From a virus: a stretch of 64,000 nt of DNA. Shown in pieces: positions 885 to 56,848 of this stretch; position 1 is the stretch's first letter; every line of letters starts with the position of its first letter. The translations under genes and the position numbers were made by a program. The notes below the pieces were generated by a model. The model was not told the DNA's origin. It saw nothing but the letters and a program-made list of their open reading frames with translations, and did not search any database. The stretch covers positions 32,001 to 96,000 of the IMG/VR virus record IMGVR_UViG_3300013794_000014. One strand, given 5' to 3'.

Positions 885-1556
885 ATGTCCAAAATGTCTA
901 AAATGTCTACAAAACTGAAAGTCGTAGAAATATTTGAATCTGTACAAGGAGAGGTGCCATTAGGTAAGTATGCGTTATTTATCAGGTTATATGGATGTAA
1001 TAGGCGTTGTGTTTTCTGTGATACGAAATATTCGTGGATGTCAAATACGTATTTTGAAATAGATGTGAAATCTATTCATATTCCAAAGACAATAAACTAT
1101 ATTGTAATTACCGGTGGAGAACCGCTGTTACAGAAAGACGCGTTAGAAGAGTTCGTTAAACAACTGAAATCAAAGAATCCGCACGTTAAAATAGCATTAG
1201 AAACCAATGGTGATATAACAAACTTTAACTGTAATCTATTCGACTTAGTTGTAATTTCACCCAAAGACATGTATACGTTAGAATATTGGTTACGTAGATT
1301 ACAAAACCACCCTAACGTCATACTGAAGGTTATTGATAGGCCTAATGATGAACAGTTATTCAAATACATTTTTAAACTATTAAGACATAAGGTTATTAGC
1401 ATAGAAGACTTACAGAAAATCTATATTATGCCTTTTGGTAGTACACAGAAGCAGATAGACAGAAATTTTAGACAAATACTTAAACGTATTCAGTTATATA
1501 ACCTAAAAGGTGTAAATGTCACATATCGACTACATATTACATTGAAAATAAAATAA
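885..1556 (+). CDS. queE: 7-carboxy-7-deazaguanine synthase (radical SAM)
   Basis: EIFESVQGE, FIRLYGCNRRCVFCDT (CxxxCxxC), ITGGEPL, LETNG, VISPK and RLH motifs. Confidence 0.92.
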   Translation: MSKMSKMSTKLKVVEIFESVQGEVPLGKYALFIRLYGCNRRCVFCDTKYSWMSNTYFEIDVKSIHIPKTINYIVITGGEPLLQKDALEEFVKQLKSKNPHVKIALETNGDITNFNCNLFDLVVISPKDMYTLEYWLRRLQNHPNVILKVIDRPNDEQLFKYIFKLLRHKVISIEDLQKIYIMPFGSTQKQIDRNFRQILKRIQLYNLKGVNVTYRLHITLKIK

Positions 1557-10410: not shown

Positions 10411-10473
10411 CTGGTAGCTGGTAACTGGTAATTAGTAATTAGTAATTAGCAGTTGACAAATGGGGTGATAAAC

Positions 10474-11277
10474 ATGTTAGTATATACACCAATTCCACCA
10501 ATAAACTACATTGAAAAAGTAACAGAAAGAACAAAATCAATTTTTATGTTAGCACAATTATGGTCTATTGAAGAATATCGTAATGCAATTACTAATTCTA
10601 ATTTGAAACTAATTGTACTTGATAATGGTGCTTATGAAGGTGAACTAGTATCAGATAAACGTTTAATTGAAGTTATTGGACAAGTATCTGAGTTACACCC
10701 AAAAGCAAAGATTTATGCCATAATACCAGATGAAATGCAGAATCCAGAAATGACGTTAAAGAGAACTGAAAAGTTTTTACAGTACATAGAAAGTAACGAT
10801 ATAAAGTTACCAAAAAATGTTTCATTATTAGGTGTCATTCAGGTAGATCCAAATGTCAATGAAAAAACTGCAATAATACAAACGTTAGACTTTTCTGGTA
10901 AATTAATTGACTTAACACATGGTTATGGTGTTCATTTAGGCGGTTTTACAATACCAGTATGGTTCTACAGAAAATGGGGTTATCGTGATGTATTCGGTTT
11001 AACTTTACGTTTAGTTTACAATGATCATATGTATATTCACGCCTTGGGTTTAGACGACTTCAATGAACTTAGATACATACAATATGGTTTTGATTCGTTT
11101 GATACGTCTATGCCATTTACGTTAGCATACTACGGTTTACCAATTAAGGAAGTGCCGTTACTTGACAAAAGTACTAAACAACAGTTAGGCATTGATAGAG
11201 TGCCGCTAAAGCATCCAGTTCTCGAAAACTCTTTATACATGAAGAATCTAGAAGAAATATTGAAATTATGTAAGTAA
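10474..11277 (+). CDS. dpdA: DpdA-like / TGT-fold 7-deazaguanine DNA transglycosylase
   Basis: IVLDNGAYE, IIPDE, YIHALG and DSFDTS motifs of the TGT/DpdA TIM barrel; adjacent to folE2 and GAT-queC. Confidence 0.72.
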   Translation: MLVYTPIPPINYIEKVTERTKSIFMLAQLWSIEEYRNAITNSNLKLIVLDNGAYEGELVSDKRLIEVIGQVSELHPKAKIYAIIPDEMQNPEMTLKRTEKFLQYIESNDIKLPKNVSLLGVIQVDPNVNEKTAIIQTLDFSGKLIDLTHGYGVHLGGFTIPVWFYRKWGYRDVFGLTLRLVYNDHMYIHALGLDDFNELRYIQYGFDSFDTSMPFTLAYYGLPIKEVPLLDKSTKQQLGIDRVPLKHPVLENSLYMKNLEEILKLCK

Positions 11278-11302
11278 AGTAACATATATATGTGGTGATC
11301 AA

Positions 11303-12184
11303 ATGAAAGATGTACAAAATAGTCAACCAGAAATACAAATACAGTATGATATACCGCTAGTAGGTATTGAAGACTTGAAGACATATGTACCAATTCATTG
11401 GAAAGATAACAGTTACCATCTACTTTGTACATTTTCAGTATTTGTCAATTTACCCGCTAATCAAAAAGGAATACATATGTCAAGAATACCTGAATCAATC
11501 TATGATGTAGTAAGGAAAATCGTTGGTAAAGAACATACATCATTAGAAGACTTACTAGTACATATTAAGGACAAACTACTTGAAAAACACGATTATGCTA
11601 ATACAGTTCTAATTAGGGTTTCAACGTATTTACCAATTACAGTGAAGACACCAAGAACAAAAAAAGATTCACAAGAAATCATACCAATTGAGATGGTTCT
11701 AGAACATAAAGACAATGAAACCCTTAAAACCCTAATTGTATATGTACTAGGACAAACTGTATGTCCATGTGCTCAAGAACTAACCAAAGAAGAACTTGAT
11801 GTTGAGTTATCTCCAAGTCATAATCAAAGGGGACAAATGACTATTGAATTCAAATGTCCAATTGATTATAACATTACCTTTGAAGAACTCTATGATGTAG
11901 CATGTAAGTCAATGTCGGCGCCAACATATTCACTGTTGAAAAGGCCGGATGAACAATTTGTCGTATTACAATCACATAGTAGGCCAAGGTTCGTCGAAGA
12001 TTGTGTTAGATATGCTAAACACTATATTGAACAATTAATTAGTGAAAAAGGTAACAAAAACAAAGACAAAAACAATAAAAACGTTTCTTACAGAATTAAA
12101 CAAGTCAATTATGAGTCAATACATAAACATAATGCAGTTGCAATTATTGGTGATTTAAGGTTTGGTAATCTAGGACTTCGGTGA
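11303..12184 (+). CDS. folE2: GTP cyclohydrolase FolE2/MptA family
   Basis: KGIHMSR, TVCPC, SHNQRG, LLKRPDE, PRFVEDCVR and ESIHKHNA motifs. Confidence 0.93.
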   Translation: MKDVQNSQPEIQIQYDIPLVGIEDLKTYVPIHWKDNSYHLLCTFSVFVNLPANQKGIHMSRIPESIYDVVRKIVGKEHTSLEDLLVHIKDKLLEKHDYANTVLIRVSTYLPITVKTPRTKKDSQEIIPIEMVLEHKDNETLKTLIVYVLGQTVCPCAQELTKEELDVELSPSHNQRGQMTIEFKCPIDYNITFEELYDVACKSMSAPTYSLLKRPDEQFVVLQSHSRPRFVEDCVRYAKHYIEQLISEKGNKNKDKNNKNVSYRIKQVNYESIHKHNAVAIIGDLRFGNLGLR

Positions 12185-12226
12185 TCTAGGATTTTCGGTG
12201 ATCCAAGATTTTCGGTGATCCAAATG
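12149..12226 (+). repeat. Five degenerate 15-17-nt tandem copies of an SD-containing unit (GGTGATCyArGATTTTC)
   Basis: ggtgatttaaggttt / ggtaatctaggacttc / ggtgatctaggattttc / ggtgatccaagattttc / ggtgatccaaATG. Confidence 0.85.
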
Positions 12227-13141
12227 ACTTCCATTTCTGATTTAAACATTCTTTTTTGTTATAACCAAGAAAAATTAGGTGCAATAAAGCGTGCTCACTG
12301 TTTACAAGAACAATCTCCAAAAGAAGTTGAATTACATTCTGTTCCGGTACAAAAAGTACAAGATATAGACGATGACTTTACACATGTTATTCTTGATAAA
12401 ACTGTTGCTAACACGCCTATCGAGCAAAATTATGAACAGAAACTAGTATTAGCAAATTGCCATAGAGAGCAGTATCAAAACTTAAATGTCAATGAAATGT
12501 TAGTTTATGATTTCAAAATGCCTTATACAGTATGTCGCTACAATTTACAGTATCCATATGAACGACAATACACTTACATTGGACCGTTGGTCAAAAGAGT
12601 ACAAACTAAACCAATTGAAGATAGGGCTGAACGTTTATTTGTCACAAATGGACAACATTACATGTTTGAATTAGCAAAATTTATTGTAGAACATGTAAAC
12701 GACGTCAAATGGATTATAGCGACAAAAACGGAAAAGGAATACGAAATACTAAAAGATACAAATAACTATGGACATGAAGTAGTCTATACAAAAGAGTTAG
12801 AACCTCTACTTGAACGTGCCAAATACGTTGTACATTATGGTTCACATCAGTTGGCGTTAGAATGCATTAGTACAGATCAAGTGCAATTAATTATACCGCC
12901 ACCACATTCAAGGTACTATTATCAACATGCATTCCGTATTAGGGAATTTTTAATTGGTTCATTTGTTTTTGATTTGTTTCATAGGGTACCAATTGAACGT
13001 AAATACCGCATAATAAGAAGAATTCGTTGTAATTATAAGTCATATAGAAGCAATTTACAGAACTATCGTGAAAAGGTAGAAAATAGTAAGGTGGTTACAT
13101 GTACACTGCCCACACTCTTTATACAGAACTCAAAGACTTAA
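12224..13141 (+). CDS. GT-B fold glycosyltransferase-like protein (GT28/GT1 C-terminal-like)
   Basis: YIGPLV...LEPLLERAKYVVHYGSHQLALECISTDQVQLIIP matches the nucleotide-sugar-binding segment of GT-B enzymes. Confidence 0.55.
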   Translation: MTSISDLNILFCYNQEKLGAIKRAHCLQEQSPKEVELHSVPVQKVQDIDDDFTHVILDKTVANTPIEQNYEQKLVLANCHREQYQNLNVNEMLVYDFKMPYTVCRYNLQYPYERQYTYIGPLVKRVQTKPIEDRAERLFVTNGQHYMFELAKFIVEHVNDVKWIIATKTEKEYEILKDTNNYGHEVVYTKELEPLLERAKYVVHYGSHQLALECISTDQVQLIIPPPHSRYYYQHAFRIREFLIGSFVFDLFHRVPIERKYRIIRRIRCNYKSYRSNLQNYREKVENSKVVTCTLPTLFIQNSKT

Positions 13142-13758
13142 AAAACGTTGTCTTAATAGTTTTTGACAATAATGTTGCTCATTTTTACGTTGGTATTAAA
13201 AGTGGATCTAAACTAATGAATGACAAAAACGTTAAAGGTAGAATTTACCTCAGTAATAGTTTAAATGCAACTTTTTGTATCACAGAATTCGATGATTTCT
13301 TAAAATACTTGAAGAACGTTAACGAACCTATCTTTTTTGACAAAGAAAATTTGGTTGTAACTACTCCTAATCGTGAGTTTGAATTTGTTGTCGATGAATT
13401 ACCACCGAAAGAACATTGGCCTACCTTTCCATATATCCAGAAACCAGAGACAATGTATAAAAACCTAAATTTGAAAATTGAGGTTCCTTATGACATAATG
13501 CGGTTTGAAGAAGAAGGAACATTTGTAGTATCATTAATGGGCCATAAAAAACGTATTAATAAAAACAAACATAAATTGTACACAGAAGTGAAGCGTGAAA
13601 CATTAGATAGATTACCACGATTTACATACGATTACTCATTGACGTTAGATTACCTTTATTTGCAATACAAAGAACCGTTAACTGGAAAAGCAAAAATAGA
13701 ATTCTATTTGACAAATGACTTAATGGTAACAGATGACGACATATTCGAGGTGATCTAA
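13099..13758 (+). CDS. Hypothetical protein, possible divergent sliding clamp (PCNA-like)
   Basis: 219 aa, beta-rich; C-terminal LYLQYKEPLTGKAKIEFYL resembles the PCNA C-terminal strand. Weak. Confidence 0.35.
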   Translation: MYTAHTLYTELKDLKNVVLIVFDNNVAHFYVGIKSGSKLMNDKNVKGRIYLSNSLNATFCITEFDDFLKYLKNVNEPIFFDKENLVVTTPNREFEFVVDELPPKEHWPTFPYIQKPETMYKNLNLKIEVPYDIMRFEEEGTFVVSLMGHKKRINKNKHKLYTEVKRETLDRLPRFTYDYSLTLDYLYLQYKEPLTGKAKIEFYLTNDLMVTDDDIFEVI

Positions 13759-14340
13759 ATGGAGTTAATAATAGACTTAAAACGGAAGACATATACTGGT
13801 GACGTCATTGAACCATTATGGGCTTATCAGCAATATGGTATTCAAAGTGACAGTATAGTGGTATTCAGAGGTCCTATGCAAGTAGAATTATCCGACATGA
13901 AAGATTTAGCCGACATTAAAGAAGCAAAACCAATTTATGCTAATGACGCCATTAATTTTATCATAGAGCATTTTGATTATCCAGATATCAGAATTACTTA
14001 TTTGAGACAAAGGTTACTTGTAATGATAGCAAAAGAAGTTCTAGAAGAGTATTCGGGCAAAAGGTTAACAAGAAATGGTGATGACTTATATTACAATAAC
14101 GGTAAACTTTCTGTATCTATTGCGACTAGTAGCATAACATCAGGAAAAATTCACTTGGGTATAAATATCACTAATGAAGGTACGCCTAAGGGTGTAAAAA
14201 CCGCCGCATTAAGTGATTTAGGACTAGTTAACGATGATCAAATTGAAATGATCATGGAAATGATTGGTAAACGGTATAAAACTGAAGTTGAAAAAATTGA
14301 GCAAGACATTAGGAAAACATTGCCGTTACTATCGAGGTGA
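13759..14340 (+). CDS. DUF366 family protein (biotin/lipoate-ligase-like fold)
   Basis: YTG..IEPLWAY, DSIVVFRGPM, FIIEHFD, YLRQRLL, RNGDDLY..GKLSVSIA, KIHLGIN. Confidence 0.85.
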   Translation: MELIIDLKRKTYTGDVIEPLWAYQQYGIQSDSIVVFRGPMQVELSDMKDLADIKEAKPIYANDAINFIIEHFDYPDIRITYLRQRLLVMIAKEVLEEYSGKRLTRNGDDLYYNNGKLSVSIATSSITSGKIHLGINITNEGTPKGVKTAALSDLGLVNDDQIEMIMEMIGKRYKTEVEKIEQDIRKTLPLLSR

Positions 14341-14344
14341 AATA

Positions 14345-15730
14345 ATGTGTGGAATAGGTTTCTATGGTCCAATATTAAACTCAGAAAGAGATAAACTACT
14401 TATTATGGAGTTATTGAAGACGTTGACAAAAAGAGGAAAAGATGGTTATGGTTTCATAGTAATCAGTGAAGATGGTAAGTATATGTTGTATCGCCATCAT
14501 AGTTTAGATCAAGTACTTATGCAATTACATTACACTGAGTTAAGAAAAGGAGATATTGTATTGGTACATAGTAGGGCAAGACCAATAAGTGAACTAATTC
14601 ATGAGGAAGAAAAAGAAAAGGACATTGAACTTTTACAACCTATTGTAAAACATAAAATTGCAGTTGTCTTTAACGGCATAATCGAAAATGATGAAGAGTT
14701 TAGGGAAAATGAAGAAAAATGGGTTGATACGTTTGCCATTTGTAAATACCATTCATTGCCCACATATAAGGACAAAGTTTTAAAAGGCAGTTATTCGTAC
14801 ATTTACGTTGATTTAGATGAACCACAAAAGATACACGCAATTAAAGGAAACCAACCATTATATGCTTACGAAAACGTGTATACTGGACAAATGATACTGT
14901 CGTCTGAACCGATAAAATTTGAAAACTTTTACAGTGTAAAGTTTCCAGTTGCTACAGAAATGGCTTTGACATTTAAAGTACAACAGTACATATTCGGACT
15001 ATTGACGACGTATAAATGTGAATATGAAATGACACCAATAAAAATCCATAATTCAGTGAATACACCAGATCCTGATAAATCAAAAGCGGTTGTCTTATGT
15101 TCTGGTGGACTTGATTCTTGTGTAGTCGCCTACGAAATGGCCAAACAATGTAATCACATCATTTTATTGAATTTTGACTATGGACAACCTGCCAGAAAAC
15201 AAGAATGGAATGCTACATTGAAACTATACGAATACCTACAGAAACAGTTTCCAGAGAAAACGTTCGAAGTTGTTCAATTGAAATTAGACGTGTTAAGTAC
15301 ATTGGCATCAAAGTCAACTGTTTTCAATGAACCTCCTGAAGGTACAAACGCCTTAGAAACCCTTTCAAGATGGATACCCGCAAGAAACTTAGTGTTCCTT
15401 TCATTGGCAGTTAGTTATGCAGAATATTGTGGTGCTGGAAAAATCGCCTATGGTGGAAACCTCGAAGAAGCATGTGTCTTTCCAGATAATACAACAGAAG
15501 CAATTGAAAAGTTCAATGAAGCAGTACAATGGTTTATTGCAAAACCAAAGATACAAATTATATGTCCAACCGCTTATGATATGAAAGTGGATATTGTCAG
15601 AAAAGCAATCGAGTATGGCGTCTATGATATTTCTTGGAGTTGTGATAGAGATGGTGAAACAGAATGTGGGCAATGTGAAGGATGTCTACTGAAACGTAAA
15701 GCACATAGACTTGTCACGTATCACATGTAA
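14345..15730 (+). CDS. queC: GAT-QueC fusion (class II glutamine amidotransferase + 7-cyano-7-deazaguanine synthase)
   Basis: SD GAGGTGA then MCGI (Ntn Cys), RGKDGYG, HSRA, FNGII; SGGLDS PP-loop, FDYGQ, IPARN, FPDN, SWSC...CGQCEGC. Confidence 0.92.
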   Translation: MCGIGFYGPILNSERDKLLIMELLKTLTKRGKDGYGFIVISEDGKYMLYRHHSLDQVLMQLHYTELRKGDIVLVHSRARPISELIHEEEKEKDIELLQPIVKHKIAVVFNGIIENDEEFRENEEKWVDTFAICKYHSLPTYKDKVLKGSYSYIYVDLDEPQKIHAIKGNQPLYAYENVYTGQMILSSEPIKFENFYSVKFPVATEMALTFKVQQYIFGLLTTYKCEYEMTPIKIHNSVNTPDPDKSKAVVLCSGGLDSCVVAYEMAKQCNHIILLNFDYGQPARKQEWNATLKLYEYLQKQFPEKTFEVVQLKLDVLSTLASKSTVFNEPPEGTNALETLSRWIPARNLVFLSLAVSYAEYCGAGKIAYGGNLEEACVFPDNTTEAIEKFNEAVQWFIAKPKIQIICPTAYDMKVDIVRKAIEYGVYDISWSCDRDGETECGQCEGCLLKRKAHRLVTYHM

Positions 15731-16092
15731 TCTTTGTAAACTTTAACTTCAGTTGGTTCAGTTACCTCTATTTCAACTTTTACATAAGGTGCTAAAGTCA
15801 ATACGATGTCGGATTTTTGAACTCTTGTACTATAATGATTGTCAAAAGTAATAACTGTGGTTGGTTCAGTATCATCTGCACTTCCGTCATTGGTTAAGGC
15901 CTGATAGCATTTGACGTAAACTTTCGTATTCGGGTTTCCTTTAGGTAATTGCACGACTAAATATATTGCTTCTGATATAGCGTTAATATAGAATGTTTTT
16001 GTATGTTCAACAATATCATGAAAGACAACTTCTGGTTTTTTACGTGTAGTTGAATATATCCAATGTCCTTTGAAACTCCTAATGAAAGGCAT
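15721..16092 (-). CDS. Hypothetical beta-rich protein
   Basis: 123 aa; AGGTGA SD on the minus strand. Confidence 0.7.
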   Translation of the reverse strand: MPFIRSFKGHWIYSTTRKKPEVVFHDIVEHTKTFYINAISEAIYLVVQLPKGNPNTKVYVKCYQALTNDGSADDTEPTTVITFDNHYSTRVQKSDIVLTLAPYVKVEIEVTEPTEVKVYKDYM

Positions 16093-28743: not shown

Positions 28744-29595
28744 ATGAAGTTCTATCATAGTAGACGTTTTCCAAAAATTGTCATAGATGGACATTTGACT
28801 GATACATTGAAAATATCAGAAGACTTCAAATACACGATTCATGGTGATACTTTACGACTTTATAGCGTTAGGGTAAAATGGCATCATGATCCCAGTCCAT
28901 ATCGACACGTCTTAACCATCTACTCTGAATTTGATGATGTAAATGGTTATCAAGTTGACTTATGTGACTTTTACAGAAAAACTGACTTAAATACACGTAA
29001 TGATATTTACGTTTTTGATATCAAAGGAAATCAGTTAGAACATTACATTTACAATGGACTTTGGATTAAAACACCCTTACAGAAAGGAGAAAACCTAGTT
29101 TTCATCTACTATGGATCGGGAACTGAGAATACAGGTAACCCCAATAACGTTTTTGAATTATACGAACATAATATTGGTACAAACTCATATGTAAGTCAAA
29201 AGACATTTAGATGTAACATACAGTTAACAGTGAAAGCAAATGTACAGCAAGACGAATCCATGTTCATTGGACTAACTGATAGTAACAATAGTACTTCTAT
29301 CGGTTATCAGTATGATACTTCAGTTGGTTTCGTTGCATTTGTCAAATACATGAACACATATGTTAGAAGTGAATCTTTATCCTTGAATACTGAACAACAA
29401 TATGAATTTACAATACAGTTAACAGAATCTCAAGCCAAGTTTTATGTCAATGGAAATCACGTCTTTACTCATTACGTAAATGTCGAATCTGATCTTTATG
29501 TCAAATGTAACGCTGTAAATGTAGACTATTTGTATGTCAGTAAGTATAGGGAACCAGAACCAACAGTTGTTAACGCCTTAAGACAAACAAAATAA
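28744..29595 (+). CDS. DUF2341-like/lectin-like tail protein
   Basis: GYQV...DIYVFD...LWIK...IYYG...VDYLYVSKY pattern. Confidence 0.6.
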   Translation: MKFYHSRRFPKIVIDGHLTDTLKISEDFKYTIHGDTLRLYSVRVKWHHDPSPYRHVLTIYSEFDDVNGYQVDLCDFYRKTDLNTRNDIYVFDIKGNQLEHYIYNGLWIKTPLQKGENLVFIYYGSGTENTGNPNNVFELYEHNIGTNSYVSQKTFRCNIQLTVKANVQQDESMFIGLTDSNNSTSIGYQYDTSVGFVAFVKYMNTYVRSESLSLNTEQQYEFTIQLTESQAKFYVNGNHVFTHYVNVESDLYVKCNAVNVDYLYVSKYREPEPTVVNALRQTK

Positions 29596-29608
29596 TGGTG
29601 ATCTTCAT

Positions 29609-30844
29609 ATGCCTATTATTGTCAATGGCAAAAAGACAAATGAAATACATTTCAAATATGGTGCATATGTAGACTACAATGAACCAGTTCCTACATTGAA
29701 GTATGGTAATAGGCCTGGTACAGTTGTTATACGTAAAGGTAAACCAAAAGACTACATTGAATTTGATAGTAATAATGGTGGTTATTGGAAGTACTATTTC
29801 AGTATACCTGTATTTGGTACAGATTATCTCAATGAACCAGTTCAATACAAAATTGAGTTTACAGAAAGTTCAGTTAATGTGTGGTCAAATGATTTGCAAA
29901 GCATACTAGCTACACGTTCTATAGTGAACTTCTGGGATGAAGCAACTAAAGCAAATATCAGAGTTTTCGATGAAAATTACCAACAGAAGTACTTCTGGAT
30001 TGAAAAGTTTGATCCAGTCAACAAACATGCTATAATTTGGGTTTCAATTGAACCAGGACAAAAAGAAGTAAACATTGCATATGGAAATGACAGTTGCTTT
30101 GAAAGTGGATATAATGTTCCAAGTAAATGTTTTAGGAGAGTAATTGATGGGCTAGTCGGATGTTGGCATTTTGATGAAGGACAAGATAATACTGTCTATG
30201 ATTCATCTGGCTATAATAGACATGGAACTATTAATAATGTTACTTGGACTGATGCTGGATACTATGGTAAAGCGTTATACTTCAACGATGGTGAGGTTGT
30301 AATTGAAAACTCAGAAAATATGGATGGATATGAACAATTAACAGTTATTTCTCGTATATATCCTACACAAAGTTCATCGCAAGCTATTGTATTTAACAAA
30401 GAAGTGTGTTATGAGTTGGCATTGATAAATTTGAATATATGTTGGGCAGTATGTAATAGTATATTTTGGGAGTGGATATCAACTGGATATACTGTAAAAC
30501 TTAATAAATGGTATTTTATTGCATGGGTTTATGAAAGTGCAAATTCAATAAAGACATATGTTGGTGATGAAAATAGTAATATGTCATTACATACTGGTTC
30601 TTATGGTAGTGGAAACATATCAACGTCGAATCGTAAACTTAAAATTGGAAATCGGTATATTGCTAATTGTCCATTTAAAGGTATCATAGACGAAGTTATG
30701 ATCTTCAATAAAGCATTAACTAATGAAGAAATTCAAGACTTATACAATAATCATGGAATAGGAGGACATGATGGTAAATGTTACGTAAGAAAAATTATTG
30801 AACAAGATCTCCAATTCGGAACCATTTCCATTAATGAATTCTAA
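29609..30844 (+). CDS. DUF2341 + LamG (concanavalin A-like) receptor-binding protein
   Basis: YFWIEKFD...IIWV...IAYGN then GLVGCWHFDEG...WYFIA...FKGIIDEVMIFNKAL. Confidence 0.75.
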   Translation: MPIIVNGKKTNEIHFKYGAYVDYNEPVPTLKYGNRPGTVVIRKGKPKDYIEFDSNNGGYWKYYFSIPVFGTDYLNEPVQYKIEFTESSVNVWSNDLQSILATRSIVNFWDEATKANIRVFDENYQQKYFWIEKFDPVNKHAIIWVSIEPGQKEVNIAYGNDSCFESGYNVPSKCFRRVIDGLVGCWHFDEGQDNTVYDSSGYNRHGTINNVTWTDAGYYGKALYFNDGEVVIENSENMDGYEQLTVISRIYPTQSSSQAIVFNKEVCYELALINLNICWAVCNSIFWEWISTGYTVKLNKWYFIAWVYESANSIKTYVGDENSNMSLHTGSYGSGNISTSNRKLKIGNRYIANCPFKGIIDEVMIFNKALTNEEIQDLYNNHGIGGHDGKCYVRKIIEQDLQFGTISINEF

Positions 30845-52724: not shown

Positions 52725-54186
52725 ATTGATTTCATTCCCATCAAAGTTCCGGGATTTAGTGCGTTTTCCTCTAGATATTTTAGACACATTCAAAAGTTAT
52801 TTTGCAACCCTCAGACATTATCCGTTAATTCAAAAATTAGTACCTAAATCAGAAAAACAGTTTAAAAACCGTTATTACGAAATGAGTTACTATATTGATC
52901 ATGATCCAGCTGTGTACGGTTCTTTGAAGTTCATAGCACTAACTGTTTCTGATGCGTATAAGCCACTGGGACATGAAATACAGAAAGAAGTCAGAGACAT
53001 TGTATTCAACCTAATGGCTTTTGGTGATGTCATCGTTTCAAACAAGGGAACTATGTTACCATTATTCGAACTCTCTATCGTTGATGATAAAAAAAGAATA
53101 GGTAATTTTAACCCAGATCCAGTTATAACCGATGCCAAATATTACATTCTCAATGAAATGGAAGGAAATAAACGAAAAGTATATACAGACAATGACGTTA
53201 TTCATCTGTCGTTATTTCCACAAGGTCATATGATCAAAGACATTTACGAGAGATGGACTTATGGCATCTATGGACGTGCACCAATGTTATCTCTACTGAA
53301 GTTATTGGCGTGGAAAGATAAACTAATTGATGACGACATAATGATCAAGGATCGTATGATACCAAGAGAAGTTCATAAGTTAAAAATTGATATACCACGA
53401 ACGTTGTTAGCTAATAGACAAGCAAATAAACAATCACATCAAGAATTATTGGACATATATGATCAGTATGTGAAATCATTGCTTGATCAATATAGAAGTG
53501 CAATATCACAGACGGAACCAGGAGAGCACTATGTTATTACAGAAGATGTTGAAATTGACATTTTAGAACCGAAAATCAATTATTCAACACCTAACGACTT
53601 ATTGGATCAATTGACACAGTATATCATAGGAGTATTCAATGTACCGTTATCAGCCGTACTAGGAATATCGAAGTCTTCGTATGCAGCAGAATTAGCAGTA
53701 GCATCATATTATACAGTACAAGCAAATGCTTTAGTTGGCTTAGTCAATGAATACCTAAAAGTCAGATATCCAAATTTAGAAGAACGTCTTGATAGCGTCA
53801 ATGTTGTCCTAGACATATGGAAAGATAGTATTTATAAGCGTGTAGTACTCCTTACTCAAGCGGGTGTAATCACAAGAAATGAAGCAAGAGAAATGATCGG
53901 CTTAGAACCAATTGAAGGTTTAGATGACTTAATCATAATTGAACAAATTGATGGTAGAAAGATTGCTGCAATTGGACGTGAAGGAACTGTAAAACAGGAA
54001 CCTGGAACACCTTTAGCAACTGAAAAACGTGATGAAAAAGACGAGTACAATAGACTTGAAACAAACAGAATTCAAAGGTTATTGAAGAAAGGAGGTGGAC
54101 AAAATGAAACAAATAAAACAGGTGAAACAAACGAAACAAACGAAACAAATGAAACAAACGGTAACGGCAGTATTTCCAAAAGGTAA
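52717..54186 (+). CDS. Portal protein
   Basis: DPAVYGSL, VIHL...IYGRAPM, VFNVPLSAVLG, GVITRNEAREMIGLEPIEG portal motifs. Confidence 0.8.
   Translation: MIKLISFPSKFRDLVRFPLDILDTFKSYFATLRHYPLIQKLVPKSEKQFKNRYYEMSYYIDHDPAVYGSLKFIALTVSDAYKPLGHEIQKEVRDIVFNLMAFGDVIVSNKGTMLPLFELSIVDDKKRIGNFNPDPVITDAKYYILNEMEGNKRKVYTDNDVIHLSLFPQGHMIKDIYERWTYGIYGRAPMLSLLKLLAWKDKLIDDDIMIKDRMIPREVHKLKIDIPRTLLANRQANKQSHQELLDIYDQYVKSLLDQYRSAISQTEPGEHYVITEDVEIDILEPKINYSTPNDLLDQLTQYIIGVFNVPLSAVLGISKSSYAAELAVASYYTVQANALVGLVNEYLKVRYPNLEERLDSVNVVLDIWKDSIYKRVVLLTQAGVITRNEAREMIGLEPIEGLDDLIIIEQIDGRKIAAIGREGTVKQEPGTPLATEKRDEKDEYNRLETNRIQRLLKKGGGQNETNKTGETNETNETNETNGNGSISKR
54104..54162 (+). repeat. 9-nt tandem repeat (GAAACAAAY) within the portal/polB overlap
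   Basis: Reads ETN repeats in the portal frame and KQT/KQM repeats in the PolB frame. Confidence 0.8.
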
Positions 54187-56848
54187 GGATCTTTATTTGA
54201 CGTTTAGGCGTGAAGATGGTTCTGTCTACAACATTTTGTATCAAAACTTTAAACCATATTTTTATGCAACTGATGATAATCTAGGGCCCATTGCCAAAAA
54301 GTCTGTACTTATGTATATTGAAGCAGATCATCCAGGAAAAGTACCAGAAATGAAAGAACAATTTAAGTGTGCCTATGAAGCAAATGTTCCCTATGATATG
54401 CGTTTCTTAATTGATAAAGGAGATTTCCTCATTGAGCCGTCTATAAAATGGAACGTTACATGGATTGACATTGAAGCACGTATTGAAGGAAAGTCAATTG
54501 AGGAAATCAGAACAGGACAAACCGATATTACTGTAATAACAAAACTTGATTCTTTGTTTAATCGTCTAGTTTGTTTTACAACCGTTGAACACGATAAGGA
54601 ACAACTTGAAAAATACTTGAAATATACTGTTAATCTTGCAATAGCTAAATCTATGATTAAAAAACTATCGAATGATACACATAAGGCGGTTAATGGATTA
54701 TCATTAGAAGATGTTGATACACTTGAAAACGACAACGACATTATTGAGTTTGTCAAAAATTACTGTGGAATAGATGATGACACTAAGGTGCAAAGTGCAT
54801 TACAATCTGCCAAAGAACTATTGAAACCAATACTCAATTTACAGATTGATATAAGGGTGTATGATAACGAAAAAGAAATGTTACAAGCGTTTTCTGAAGA
54901 CTTAATCAAATATCAACCAGACATATTGACAGGATGGAATGTACATTTTGACTATGGCGTCATTTATTATCGAATGAAACATTACAATATGCTTAGACGT
55001 CTATGTCCAGAGTTTCGAGGACAATATGATGGAAAAGTCTATAAACCGGCACCTAAAATCAATGAGGTACAATTATCGGGCGGTAAAACGGTATATAGAT
55101 ACCATACCCCTGGATACTACGTAATTGACTATTTAGAAGTTTATCAGAAACGTAGATTCAAAGTTGAAAAGTCGTATACGTTGGACTACATAACAAGAGC
55201 ATGGGATATTGAAATACCAAAGTTTAGACATGGTTACAGTAACCTAGATGAGTTGTTAGCAAATGATCCAACTTTATATGTCTACTACAATATAATTGAC
55301 GTATTATCTTTGTACTTACTTGAACATAAAACCAATTATATGGATATTACAATAAGCGTCTGTAATTTCACTAAATGTCCAATGTCATATTGTACATCAC
55401 AAAGAATGTTAGTTGATGCTGCATTAATTGGATGGCTAAATAAACGTGGTTTAGTACGAATAACAAAGAAACAGAGACAAGATGTCAACTATGAAGGTGC
55501 TTATGTATATGCCGATACTGGATTTCATAAGGGTTGGATTGCTGATGCTGATTTCACATCACTGTATCCATCCATTATTCGTACTTGTAACATATCACCA
55601 GAAACATATGTTGGAACACTTGAACAATTGAATATAGACAAACAACACGCCTTACAGAAATACATAGTGTGTCCAAATGATGCATGTTTCAAGAAGAAAT
55701 CACAACAACCAGGAATACTACCAACTATACTTGATGAATTGTTTACAAACAGAAAGAAAGCAAAGAAACAAGCAAAAGAATATTTGAACAAATACAAAGA
55801 AACAGGAGACATCAAGTATTATGAGTTATTCAAACAGTATGACAACTTACAGTTTACATTGAAAATTCTATTGAATTCCTTCTATGGTGTATTTGGTGAT
55901 GCTGGATATGACTTATGTACACCAGAAATAGCAGGAGCAATTACAGCTACAGGTAGATTCCTTATCAAATTTGCAAAACGTAAGTTGGAAGAAAAGGGTT
56001 TCAAGGTCATTTACATTGATACAGATTCCAACTATGTGATGTTAAGACCAGTACAAGGACAAACTATTGAAGAACAAATTTGTGGACAAATCGAAGAACA
56101 GATTTGTAAATGCATTGAACAAATATTGGAAATCTATGAGTACATTAATAGTCAGTGGGACGAACTAGTGAAAAAAGAACTAGGTGTTGATACTGAACAT
56201 TATTTCGAAATGAAAAGTGAACTATTAGCAAAAAACATGATTGTCAGTAAGAAGAAACGTTATGCAATTGCTTTAGTACTATCTGAAGCACAATTAGACG
56301 TTCTTAAGGAACTTTATCCTGATAAAGACAAGATGATTGAGTATTTGAAGTCAATATCGTTAGAACCATCTATTGAGGTTAAAGGACTTGAAGTTGTTAG
56401 ATCAGATGTTTCAGATATTGTAGTCGAAGAAATGCAAAAAATGCTTGAAGACTTATTACTTGAAAGAAAAACCCCAAGTCAATTGAGAAGAGAAATCCAA
56501 GAACTATTTGTCAAAATAAGACGTTTAGCATCAAAAGATTTGAACAAAATTGCAATACCTGTAAGATTGAACTCATGGGTTGATAAGAACGGTAAACCAA
56601 TAACAAACGCTAAAGCGTTAGCAATCAAAGAGTACAATGAAAAACATCCAGATAACCCAATTATTCTAGGTGAAAAATGTCTTATGGTTTATACGAAAGA
56701 TACAATAGGTGCTAAAGTCTGGAAAATAGGTGAAAAACCAACTGTTAAACCTTATGAGATTGATTGGAAGAAAATGTTTAAGGCGTTACTGGAAAAGAAA
56801 GCAGAAGTTTGGTATGATTTACTTTCCATTTCTAAGAATCAAAACTAA
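54104..56848 (+). CDS. polB: Family B DNA polymerase
   Basis: DIE (ExoI), GWNVHFD (ExoII), YNIID (ExoIII), DFTSLYPSII, KILLNSFYG, YIDTDS, KKRY, KGLE; GGAGGTGG SD before ATG 54104. Confidence 0.96.
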   Translation: MKQIKQVKQTKQTKQMKQTVTAVFPKGKDLYLTFRREDGSVYNILYQNFKPYFYATDDNLGPIAKKSVLMYIEADHPGKVPEMKEQFKCAYEANVPYDMRFLIDKGDFLIEPSIKWNVTWIDIEARIEGKSIEEIRTGQTDITVITKLDSLFNRLVCFTTVEHDKEQLEKYLKYTVNLAIAKSMIKKLSNDTHKAVNGLSLEDVDTLENDNDIIEFVKNYCGIDDDTKVQSALQSAKELLKPILNLQIDIRVYDNEKEMLQAFSEDLIKYQPDILTGWNVHFDYGVIYYRMKHYNMLRRLCPEFRGQYDGKVYKPAPKINEVQLSGGKTVYRYHTPGYYVIDYLEVYQKRRFKVEKSYTLDYITRAWDIEIPKFRHGYSNLDELLANDPTLYVYYNIIDVLSLYLLEHKTNYMDITISVCNFTKCPMSYCTSQRMLVDAALIGWLNKRGLVRITKKQRQDVNYEGAYVYADTGFHKGWIADADFTSLYPSIIRTCNISPETYVGTLEQLNIDKQHALQKYIVCPNDACFKKKSQQPGILPTILDELFTNRKKAKKQAKEYLNKYKETGDIKYYELFKQYDNLQFTLKILLNSFYGVFGDAGYDLCTPEIAGAITATGRFLIKFAKRKLEEKGFKVIYIDTDSNYVMLRPVQGQTIEEQICGQIEEQICKCIEQILEIYEYINSQWDELVKKELGVDTEHYFEMKSELLAKNMIVSKKKRYAIALVLSEAQLDVLKELYPDKDKMIEYLKSISLEPSIEVKGLEVVRSDVSDIVVEEMQKMLEDLLLERKTPSQLRREIQELFVKIRRLASKDLNKIAIPVRLNSWVDKNGKPITNAKALAIKEYNEKHPDNPIILGEKCLMVYTKDTIGAKVWKIGEKPTVKPYEIDWKKMFKALLEKKAEVWYDLLSISKNQN

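Follow-up and report, generated by a model that had tools for sequence, protein, structure and literature searches.

A candidate DpdA3 and Gat-QueC operon for deazaguanine modification of DNA, with DUF366 and a divergent glycosyltransferase homologue, in a probable virus of Methanococci

In this study, we undertook a computational analysis of a six-gene operon in a virus genome, IMG/VR record IMGVR_UViG_3300013794_000014, which is 141,059 bp long and has direct terminal repeats. The stretch analysed, hereafter the window, comprises the 64,000 nucleotides at bases 32001–96000 of that record; positions outside it are given in the coordinates of the whole record (G000). The genome has ~33% G+C and its genes are closely packed, nearly every one of them on one strand. 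Near-identical DNA is present in a hydrothermal-vent metagenome, relatives at 80–95% nucleotide identity are present in a second vent study, and the host of the virus probably belongs to the Methanococci. The initial annotation of the window had described a contiguous, coupled run of genes labelled dpdA-like, folE2, GT-B-like, unknown, DUF366 and gat-queC as a viral 7-deazaguanine DNA-modification operon. All six open reading frames (ORFs) were found where it had placed them, on the + strand (Table 1), with successive gaps of 25, 39, −43 (an overlap), 0 and 4 nt and with their starts placed after GGTGAT-type ribosome sites.

Table 1. Genes of the operon and the two base-synthesis genes encoded apart from it (window positions unless stated otherwise).
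Gene and assignment	Position	Strand	Basis or remark
orfA, candidate DpdA3-type DNA guanine transglycosylase, 267 aa	10474-11277	+	fold, profiles, que-gene neighbours
mptA/folE2, MptA/FolE2-type GTP cyclohydrolase	11303-12184	+	PF02649, TIGR00294
orfC, divergent GT-B glycosyltransferase homologue with shortened N-terminal domain	12224-13141	+	profile searches
orfD, clade-specific conserved protein without family match, 219 aa	13099-13758	+	overlaps orfC by 43 nt
DUF366 protein, probable accessory of preQ0 synthesis	13759-14340	+	PF04017, PDB 2DDZ
gat-queC, class-II glutamine amidotransferase fused to QueC	14345-15730	+	PF06508, phage 9g match
QueE-like radical SAM enzyme, candidate 7-carboxy-7-deazaguanine synthase	885-1556	+	PF04055, NCBIfam QueE models
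QueD	G000 29243-29821 (~2.2 kb ahead of the window)		Pfam PTPS, NCBIfam QueD model

Direct matches bore out the folE2, DUF366 and gat-queC labels. The cyclohydrolase, hereafter MptA, matches PF02649 with E 8e-66 and 222.6 bits (cut-off 25) and TIGR00294 with 228 bits (cut-off 220), and is 40–46% identical to its homologues in Methanococci. Gat-QueC begins with Met-Cys (MCGIG), as class-II amidotransferases do, and has an SGGLDS PP-loop and the zinc cysteines C433, C441, C444 and C447. Its QueC half is evident from matches to PF06508 (E 1e-40) and phrog_10428 (E 4e-48), its amidotransferase half has a GATase_7 match of just E 1e-4, under the cut-off, and Gat-QueC of phage 9g aligns to it with 27% identity over 99% of the length (E 6e-33). 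The queE that had been placed 9 kb upstream is a QueE-like gene with a match to PF04055 (E 7.5e-11), and QueE models account for all of its top five NCBIfam matches (E 4e-21 to 1e-12). For queD, which is not in the window, the initial annotation had offered a location elsewhere in the genome or supply by the host. The former proved correct, the gene having a Pfam PTPS match of 85.7 bits, above the cut-off, and supply by the host is unnecessary as the virus has its own copy. Since the queE-like gene and queD are both present in the same genome, the gene content indicates that the virus encodes the entire route from GTP (MptA, QueD, the QueE-like enzyme and Gat-QueC).

Direct searches with orfA, the enzyme predicted to insert the base into DNA, gave no match in Pfam or NCBIfam, none of use in PHROG and no PDB sequence match, and its dpdA-like label was confirmed by fold and profile methods. 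The AlphaFold2 (AF2) model of orfA, built with seven metagenomic homologues, is a TIM barrel with a pLDDT of 84.7. In a comparison of that model with 48,161 PDB representatives, ranks one to four were taken by members of the TGT superfamily, namely bacterial TGT (3unt; Z 14.1), the DNA preQ0 insertase DpdA (7ui4; 13.8), Cap10 (13.7) and archaeosine TGT (ArcTGT; 13.3), with QTRT2 at rank six, and the top Foldseek matches were also to TGT. A search of BFVD with the same model returned at rank two a 259-aa protein of Cellulophaga phage phiST, followed by several phage proteins named as queuine tRNA-ribosyltransferases.

Single-protein scans of viral contigs matched nothing with orfA and a metagenome scan with the alignment of the orfA clade (A1) returned two distant loci only, while an alignment-based scan identified 34 IMG/VR contigs encoding proteins with 24–35% identity. 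These IMG/VR relatives constitute a Pfam-orphan DpdA3-type family of ~250 aa whose genes are typically directly upstream of a DNA polymerase gene and near those for FolE or FolE2 and QueC, QueD or QueE. A queC, queD, queE or folE2 gene was present within 10 kb of the orfA relative (≤10 kb) in 26 of the 34 loci, and the neighbours that recurred across the loci were QueC, QueE, FolE, QueD, DNA polymerase A or B, a DUF3987 protein and AAA_24. In 23 loci the adjacent polymerase is a PolA whose N-terminal domain is UDG-like, in seven it is a PolB, and the subgroup with PolB and FolE2 may represent archaeal viruses.

The connection of orfA to a characterized subfamily came through this IMG/VR family. 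By tblastn, one of its members matches phiST, where the gene is CGPG_00065, which is the DpdA3 of Cui et al. (PMC10516641). In profile comparisons by hhalign, the orfA-clade alignment matched the alignment of the IMG/VR family (A4) with Prob 99.95 and E 2.6e-38, and the latter matched phiST CGPG_00065 with Prob 99.7 and E 1.1e-26. Both alignments have the motifs LDNGAYE, PD and S-x-D-S without variation, and these line up with phiST, a correspondence that comes from sequence alignment rather than from structural superposition on the TGT aspartates. Based on its fold, the profile links to phiST DpdA3 and its que-gene neighbours, orfA is of the DpdA3 type and not the DpdA4 of archaeal viruses, and its predicted activity is base exchange in DNA. 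DpdA4 is the type known from archaeal viruses, whereas DpdA3 is the type that permits complete replacement of G (PMC10516641). Only a handful of archaeal viruses have been checked for deazaguanine modification. The paper in which the DpdA subfamilies were defined includes no methanogen virus, and we found no word beginning with "Methano" in its main text (PMC10516641).

These results bear on whether the target of the cluster is DNA at all. Potentially, the cluster could serve an RNA or a small molecule instead, either by boosting archaeosine for tRNA or by producing a deazapurine metabolite. MptA, DUF366 and the GT-B protein each have host counterparts, and the host lineage uses archaeosine in its tRNA, as such a role would predict. 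We consider this highly improbable, as orfA is in the phage DpdA3 lineage rather than with ArcTGT or bacterial TGT and, at 267 aa, is without their extra domains, no Pfam TGT match was found in the genome, and the Gat-QueC is of the phage 9g type. The proposal that the operon serves viral DNA modification, with dG+ or dPreQ0 as the baseline product, was upheld by the presence of both a DpdA-family enzyme and Gat-QueC.

The initial annotation had counted DUF366 as one of two extra enzymes that might decorate the base, an assignment that does not stand. The viral protein belongs to its family over the full length, matching PF04017 with E 8e-71 and 237.8 bits (cut-off 29.9) over positions 1–183 of 184, and PDB 2DDZ, PH0223 of Pyrococcus horikoshii, with E 1e-35. 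A genome scan yielded 24 cellular DUF366 loci, 12 of which have que-gene neighbours, and que genes adjoin DUF366 in every archaeal locus outside Methanococci (11/11). The gene order is queC-DUF366-queE-queD in seven Methanosarcinales loci (including Methanosarcina), DUF366-queD-queE in two Methanobacteriaceae loci (Methanobacterium) and queE-mptA-DUF366-queD in a Hydrothermarchaeales genome, and in Jordarchaeum DUF366 is located between a radical-SAM-like gene (28.5 bits, just under the Pfam cut-off) and queD. The same association was found in a rumen bacterium, as QueC-DUF366, so that que neighbours occur in four archaeal lineages and one bacterium. In Methanococci, DUF366 is present in 36 of 39 genomes, and the viral protein is 50–62% identical to the Methanococci copies and forms a joint clade with them (support 96/94). 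Because of the que neighbours in other lineages, the near-universality of DUF366 in Methanococci and the grouping of the viral protein with the Methanococci copies, we assign it to base synthesis rather than to decoration, as a probable accessory of preQ0 synthesis, and we take it to have been acquired from the Methanococci host lineage.

Within viruses, a single-protein scan of viral contigs with DUF366 matched nothing and INPHARED contained no true phage record with the gene. The one record labelled as a phage in which DUF366 was present, Microcystis phage MaAM05 (MW495066.1), was not used, as the stretch around the gene (106489–126938), with SecDF, glyS, mtgA, fabI, FliM and OmpA, suggests bacterial DNA. 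DUF366, COG2029 and PF04017 were not mentioned in the literature searched, including a 2026 survey of QueC neighbourhoods. In the bacterial loci, a HEAT-repeat protein gene is directly upstream of DUF366 in one case and of QueC-DUF366 in another.

The second candidate decorating enzyme, orfC, had no direct Pfam match (E ≤ 10) and no NCBIfam, PHROG or PDB sequence match. Its AF2 model is poor (pLDDT 43), with residues 136–215 forming a beta-alpha-beta, Rossmann-like region. Profile methods nevertheless confirmed the GT-B-like label. A profile of eight orfC homologues searched against 1.8 billion proteins returned six outside relatives (E 2e-8 to 5e-4), all six of which have PF04101 (Glyco_tran_28_C) and PF13528 (Glyco_trans_1_3). 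The hhalign comparison of the orfC-clade profile with the profile of these GT-B relatives gave Prob 99.4 and E 8.5e-22 over residues 88–247, a region that spans the PYTIC linker, GPL and the H-x-x-x-x-E donor helix and in which His208, Glu213, Pro225 and Gln234 are invariant with the relatives. Language-model neighbours of orfC are likewise in the GT-B clan. We conclude on the strength of these profile matches that orfC is a GT-B homologue, with a homologous C-terminal Rossmann domain of the nucleotide-sugar-binding kind. In comparison with MurG/GT28-like GT-B enzymes of the archaeal MJ1255 kind (PF04101 and PF13528), orfC shares the linker and the C-terminal nucleotide-sugar domain, whereas its N-terminal domain is cut to ~87 residues and is without the GxGH loop of the relatives, and the Pfam models miss it.

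The same orfC profile matches one GT-B protein of ~390 aa in 39 of 40 Methanococci genomes, and orfC accordingly has the appearance of a core Methanococci glycosyltransferase that has been trimmed. The ~390-aa protein is of the GT28/MJ1255 type, single-copy and near-universal in Methanococci, and is the apparent source of the viral gene.

The gene that overlaps orfC, orfD, has homologues at clade level only (five, with 58–81% identity) and had no family or PDB sequence match; comparisons with T7 gp2.5 and T4 gp45 gave nothing significant. Homologues of orfA, orfC and orfD with 52–61% identity are all on contigs of 11603 and 11418 bp, and those of orfC and orfD are both on contigs of 10381, 2577, 2441 and 2394 bp, synteny in these relatives being read solely from the equal sizes of the contigs in bp. 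Three contigs from the second vent study have the mptA end joined to the orfC start (12147>12235, 12151>12222 and 12154>12242), with differing letters in the spacer, and one contig crosses the orfC/orfD junction. Because relatives keep both of these joints, the orfC-orfD insert is stable within this virus clade. It also appears from our searches to be restricted to it: an alignment scan of viral contigs with orfC matched nothing, tblastn with the six GT28-type relatives found no relative of orfC in the 34 more distant DpdA3-type viral loci, and no other glycosyltransferase recurs in those loci. Linkage of orfC and orfD to dpdA is seen in close relatives, and the insert is absent from the 34 distant loci.

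A role for orfC in decorating the base, as the initial annotation had suggested, would have orfC, perhaps with orfD as the acceptor-binding half missing from its short N-terminal domain, transfer a sugar from a nucleotide sugar onto the deazaguanine side chain, either in DNA or on the free base. In its fullest form, orfC and orfD would glycosylate an amidine-bearing deazaguanine placed in DNA by the DpdA3-type enzyme, giving an undescribed glycosylated purine. The genes are suggestively arranged for this, with orfC located between mptA and DUF366/gat-queC, overlapping orfD and retaining both joints in the vent contigs, and orfC retains the GT-B linker and the donor-domain signature (His208, Glu213, Pro225 and Gln234). 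Adjacency carries little weight in a genome that is nearly all co-directional and tightly packed, however, and the synteny is limited to close relatives, with neither an orfC relative nor a recurrent glycosyltransferase in the 34 viral loci that have the same DpdA type. G+ and preQ0 have no hydroxyl, and we know of no precedent for an amidine N-glycoside. In addition, the orfC N-terminal domain is without the GxGH loop, a comparison with T4 beta-glucosyltransferase gave nothing significant, and no link between a glycosyltransferase and deazaguanine DNA was found in the literature searched. Because the base has no hydroxyl and the neighbourhood evidence is weak in so tightly packed a genome, we rate sugar transfer onto the deazaguanine as improbable, both in its general form and for the specific glycosylated purine in DNA.

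It is more likely that the orfC-orfD pair acts on something other than deazaguanine. One formulation, which we regard as a real possibility although somewhat short of a probable one, is that orfC is only a neighbour of the pathway and that its target is a glycoconjugate (of the host or of the virion), a pterin arising as a by-product of MptA, or a hydroxymethyl-pyrimidine of the DNA. In the case of a glycoconjugate, orfC would mimic or compete with the core Methanococci enzyme, and it is relevant that the ~390-aa Methanococci homologue (39/40 genomes) is not linked to que genes, DUF366 or mptA. Pterin glycosides occur in cyanobacteria and Sulfolobus, in keeping with a pterin target. A pyrimidine target would require a viral dUMP hydroxymethylase, and a gene of the thymidylate-synthase family is present (G000 15408–16055). 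Its 215-aa product has the catalytic Pro-Cys and retains the Asn typical of dUMP-type enzymes (RSQD..FPSN), and its sequence did not separate thymidylate synthase from dUMP hydroxymethylase. Counting against these targets, that gene is ~28 kb off and is possibly a plain thymidylate synthase, and no sugar-nucleotide genes were seen in the genome, although no search aimed at them was made.

For orfD, a function unrelated to base chemistry was also considered, namely that of a diverged sliding clamp serving the viral PolB, the operon then combining genes for replication with genes for modification in the manner of DpdA3-type loci elsewhere. A PolB is encoded in the window (54095–56848; PF00136, E 1e-39), Pfam searches of the whole genome revealed no clamp of the PCNA or gp45 type, and in the related viral loci the DpdA3-type gene adjoins a DNA polymerase gene. 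Three signals from orfD itself point in the same direction: its atlas neighbours include a cluster with gp45-slide_C in 10% of members, one of six orfD homologues touches phrog_223 (DNA polymerase processivity factor; E 0.056), and hhalign aligned orfD residues 33–76 with gp45 residues 23–69 (E 0.12). All three are sub-threshold, with an hhalign Prob of 0.5%, and the overlap of orfD with orfC suggests co-expression with the transferase homologue, so that we find a clamp unlikely.

Taken together, the gene identities, homology links and neighbourhoods suggest a route in which each chemical step, and the modification of the DNA itself, is a prediction. GTP would be opened by MptA, after which QueD would make CPH4 and the QueE-like radical SAM enzyme would make CDG. 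Gat-QueC, helped by DUF366 at the QueC/QueE step, would then yield preQ0 followed by the amidine G+, and the DpdA3-type enzyme would exchange guanine for the product in double-stranded viral DNA to give dG+ (or dPreQ0). Of these two predicted products the archaeosine-type base is the most likely, since the last enzyme is Gat-QueC. Given an inserting enzyme of the DpdA3 type, occupancy of the modified base may be high, and the likely purpose of the modification is protection from host restriction. We therefore favour, as probable on present sequence comparisons, a virus that makes its own 7-deazaguanine and introduces it into its DNA by post-replicative exchange, with DUF366 participating in making the base and with orfC and orfD probably having another target.

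Several observations weigh against parts of this proposal. The structural Z-scores of orfA are only ~1 above those of unrelated TIM barrels, and the direct hhalign comparison of the orfA-clade alignment with phiST DpdA3 gave only Prob 58% and E 1e-4, the strong link being transitive. PF01702 (TGT) and PF20314 (DUF6610) were both unmatched in the whole genome, the latter in a search at E ≤ 10. The best NCBIfam matches of the QueE-like enzyme (75.7 bits) and QueD (72.5 bits) are both below the trusted cut-offs, and the product of MptA is a cyclic phosphate rather than the H2NTP used by bacterial QueD. As to DUF366, que genes are absent beside it in 10 of 11 bacterial loci, and the Methanococci gene stands away from que genes. 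Finally, the position of orfC and orfD within the operon with translational coupling, which is kept in relatives, suits a role in the pathway as well as it suits a bystander.

The predicted system resembles known ones in part. With the DpdA3 systems described in 2023, of which phiST is one (PMC10516641), it shares a short (~260 aa) TGT-fold enzyme with LDNGA and S-x-D-S motifs, and FolE/QueD/QueE-type genes encoded alongside, near replication genes. It differs from them in its archaeal host, in having an MptA-type cyclohydrolase instead of FolE, in a last enzyme that is Gat-QueC and not DpdL, QueC* or QueF/DpdN, and in the addition of DUF366, orfC and orfD; the direct similarity of orfA to the phiST enzyme is also weak. 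The nonagviruses, including phage 9g (FolE, QueD, QueE, Gat-QueC and DpdA1; dG+), have the same two-domain Gat-QueC and the product predicted here, whereas their inserting enzyme is DpdA1 and not DpdA3-like, and no DUF366 or glycosyltransferase is known from them. Phage 9g replaces ~25% of its G (PMC10516641). Halovirus HVTV-1 (DpdA4/DUF6610; dPreQ1) is likewise a tailed archaeal virus with deazaguanine DNA modification, which in our virus is predicted from genes, but with no PF20314 match here both the DpdA subfamily and the end product differ. Unlike PH0223, the DUF366 described here is in a virus, 4 nt upstream of Gat-QueC.

Deazaguanine modification of DNA is a main viral route to evading restriction, and our results place a phage-type DpdA3 lineage, which in bacteria is tied to full replacement of G, in an archaeal virus. 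Its pairing with Gat-QueC predicts DNA that is heavily substituted with archaeosine. The viral DUF366 beside Gat-QueC is an independent line of evidence suggesting that preQ0 synthesis, a pathway that is deemed fully known, has a missing helper in this orphan family. In addition, the virus clade offers a compact test bed of four genes (dpdA3, orfC, orfD and gat-queC) for the existence of sugar-bearing deazaguanines; were the sugar to prove real, improbable as we judge it, this methanogen virus would have a glycosylated purine in its genome, a DNA base as yet undescribed.

Other features of the genome were also recorded. Two genes past queD is a guanylate-kinase-like gene (G000 30188–30697; TIGR03263, E 3e-12), which could supply the GTP pool for the pathway. 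Among four-base palindromes counted genome-wide, CGCG (0.41 observed/expected), GCGC (0.64), CATG (0.66) and AGCT (0.69) are depleted and GATC (0.96) and GGCC (0.93) are not, a signal that we judged too weak for use. The spacer between mptA and orfC (12185–12223) has the ribosome-site unit GATTTTCGGTGATCC two to three times, and the spacer directly upstream of the orfA ribosome site is occupied by six tandem heptamers (GGTAACT, GGTAGCT or GGTAATT; 10411–10452).

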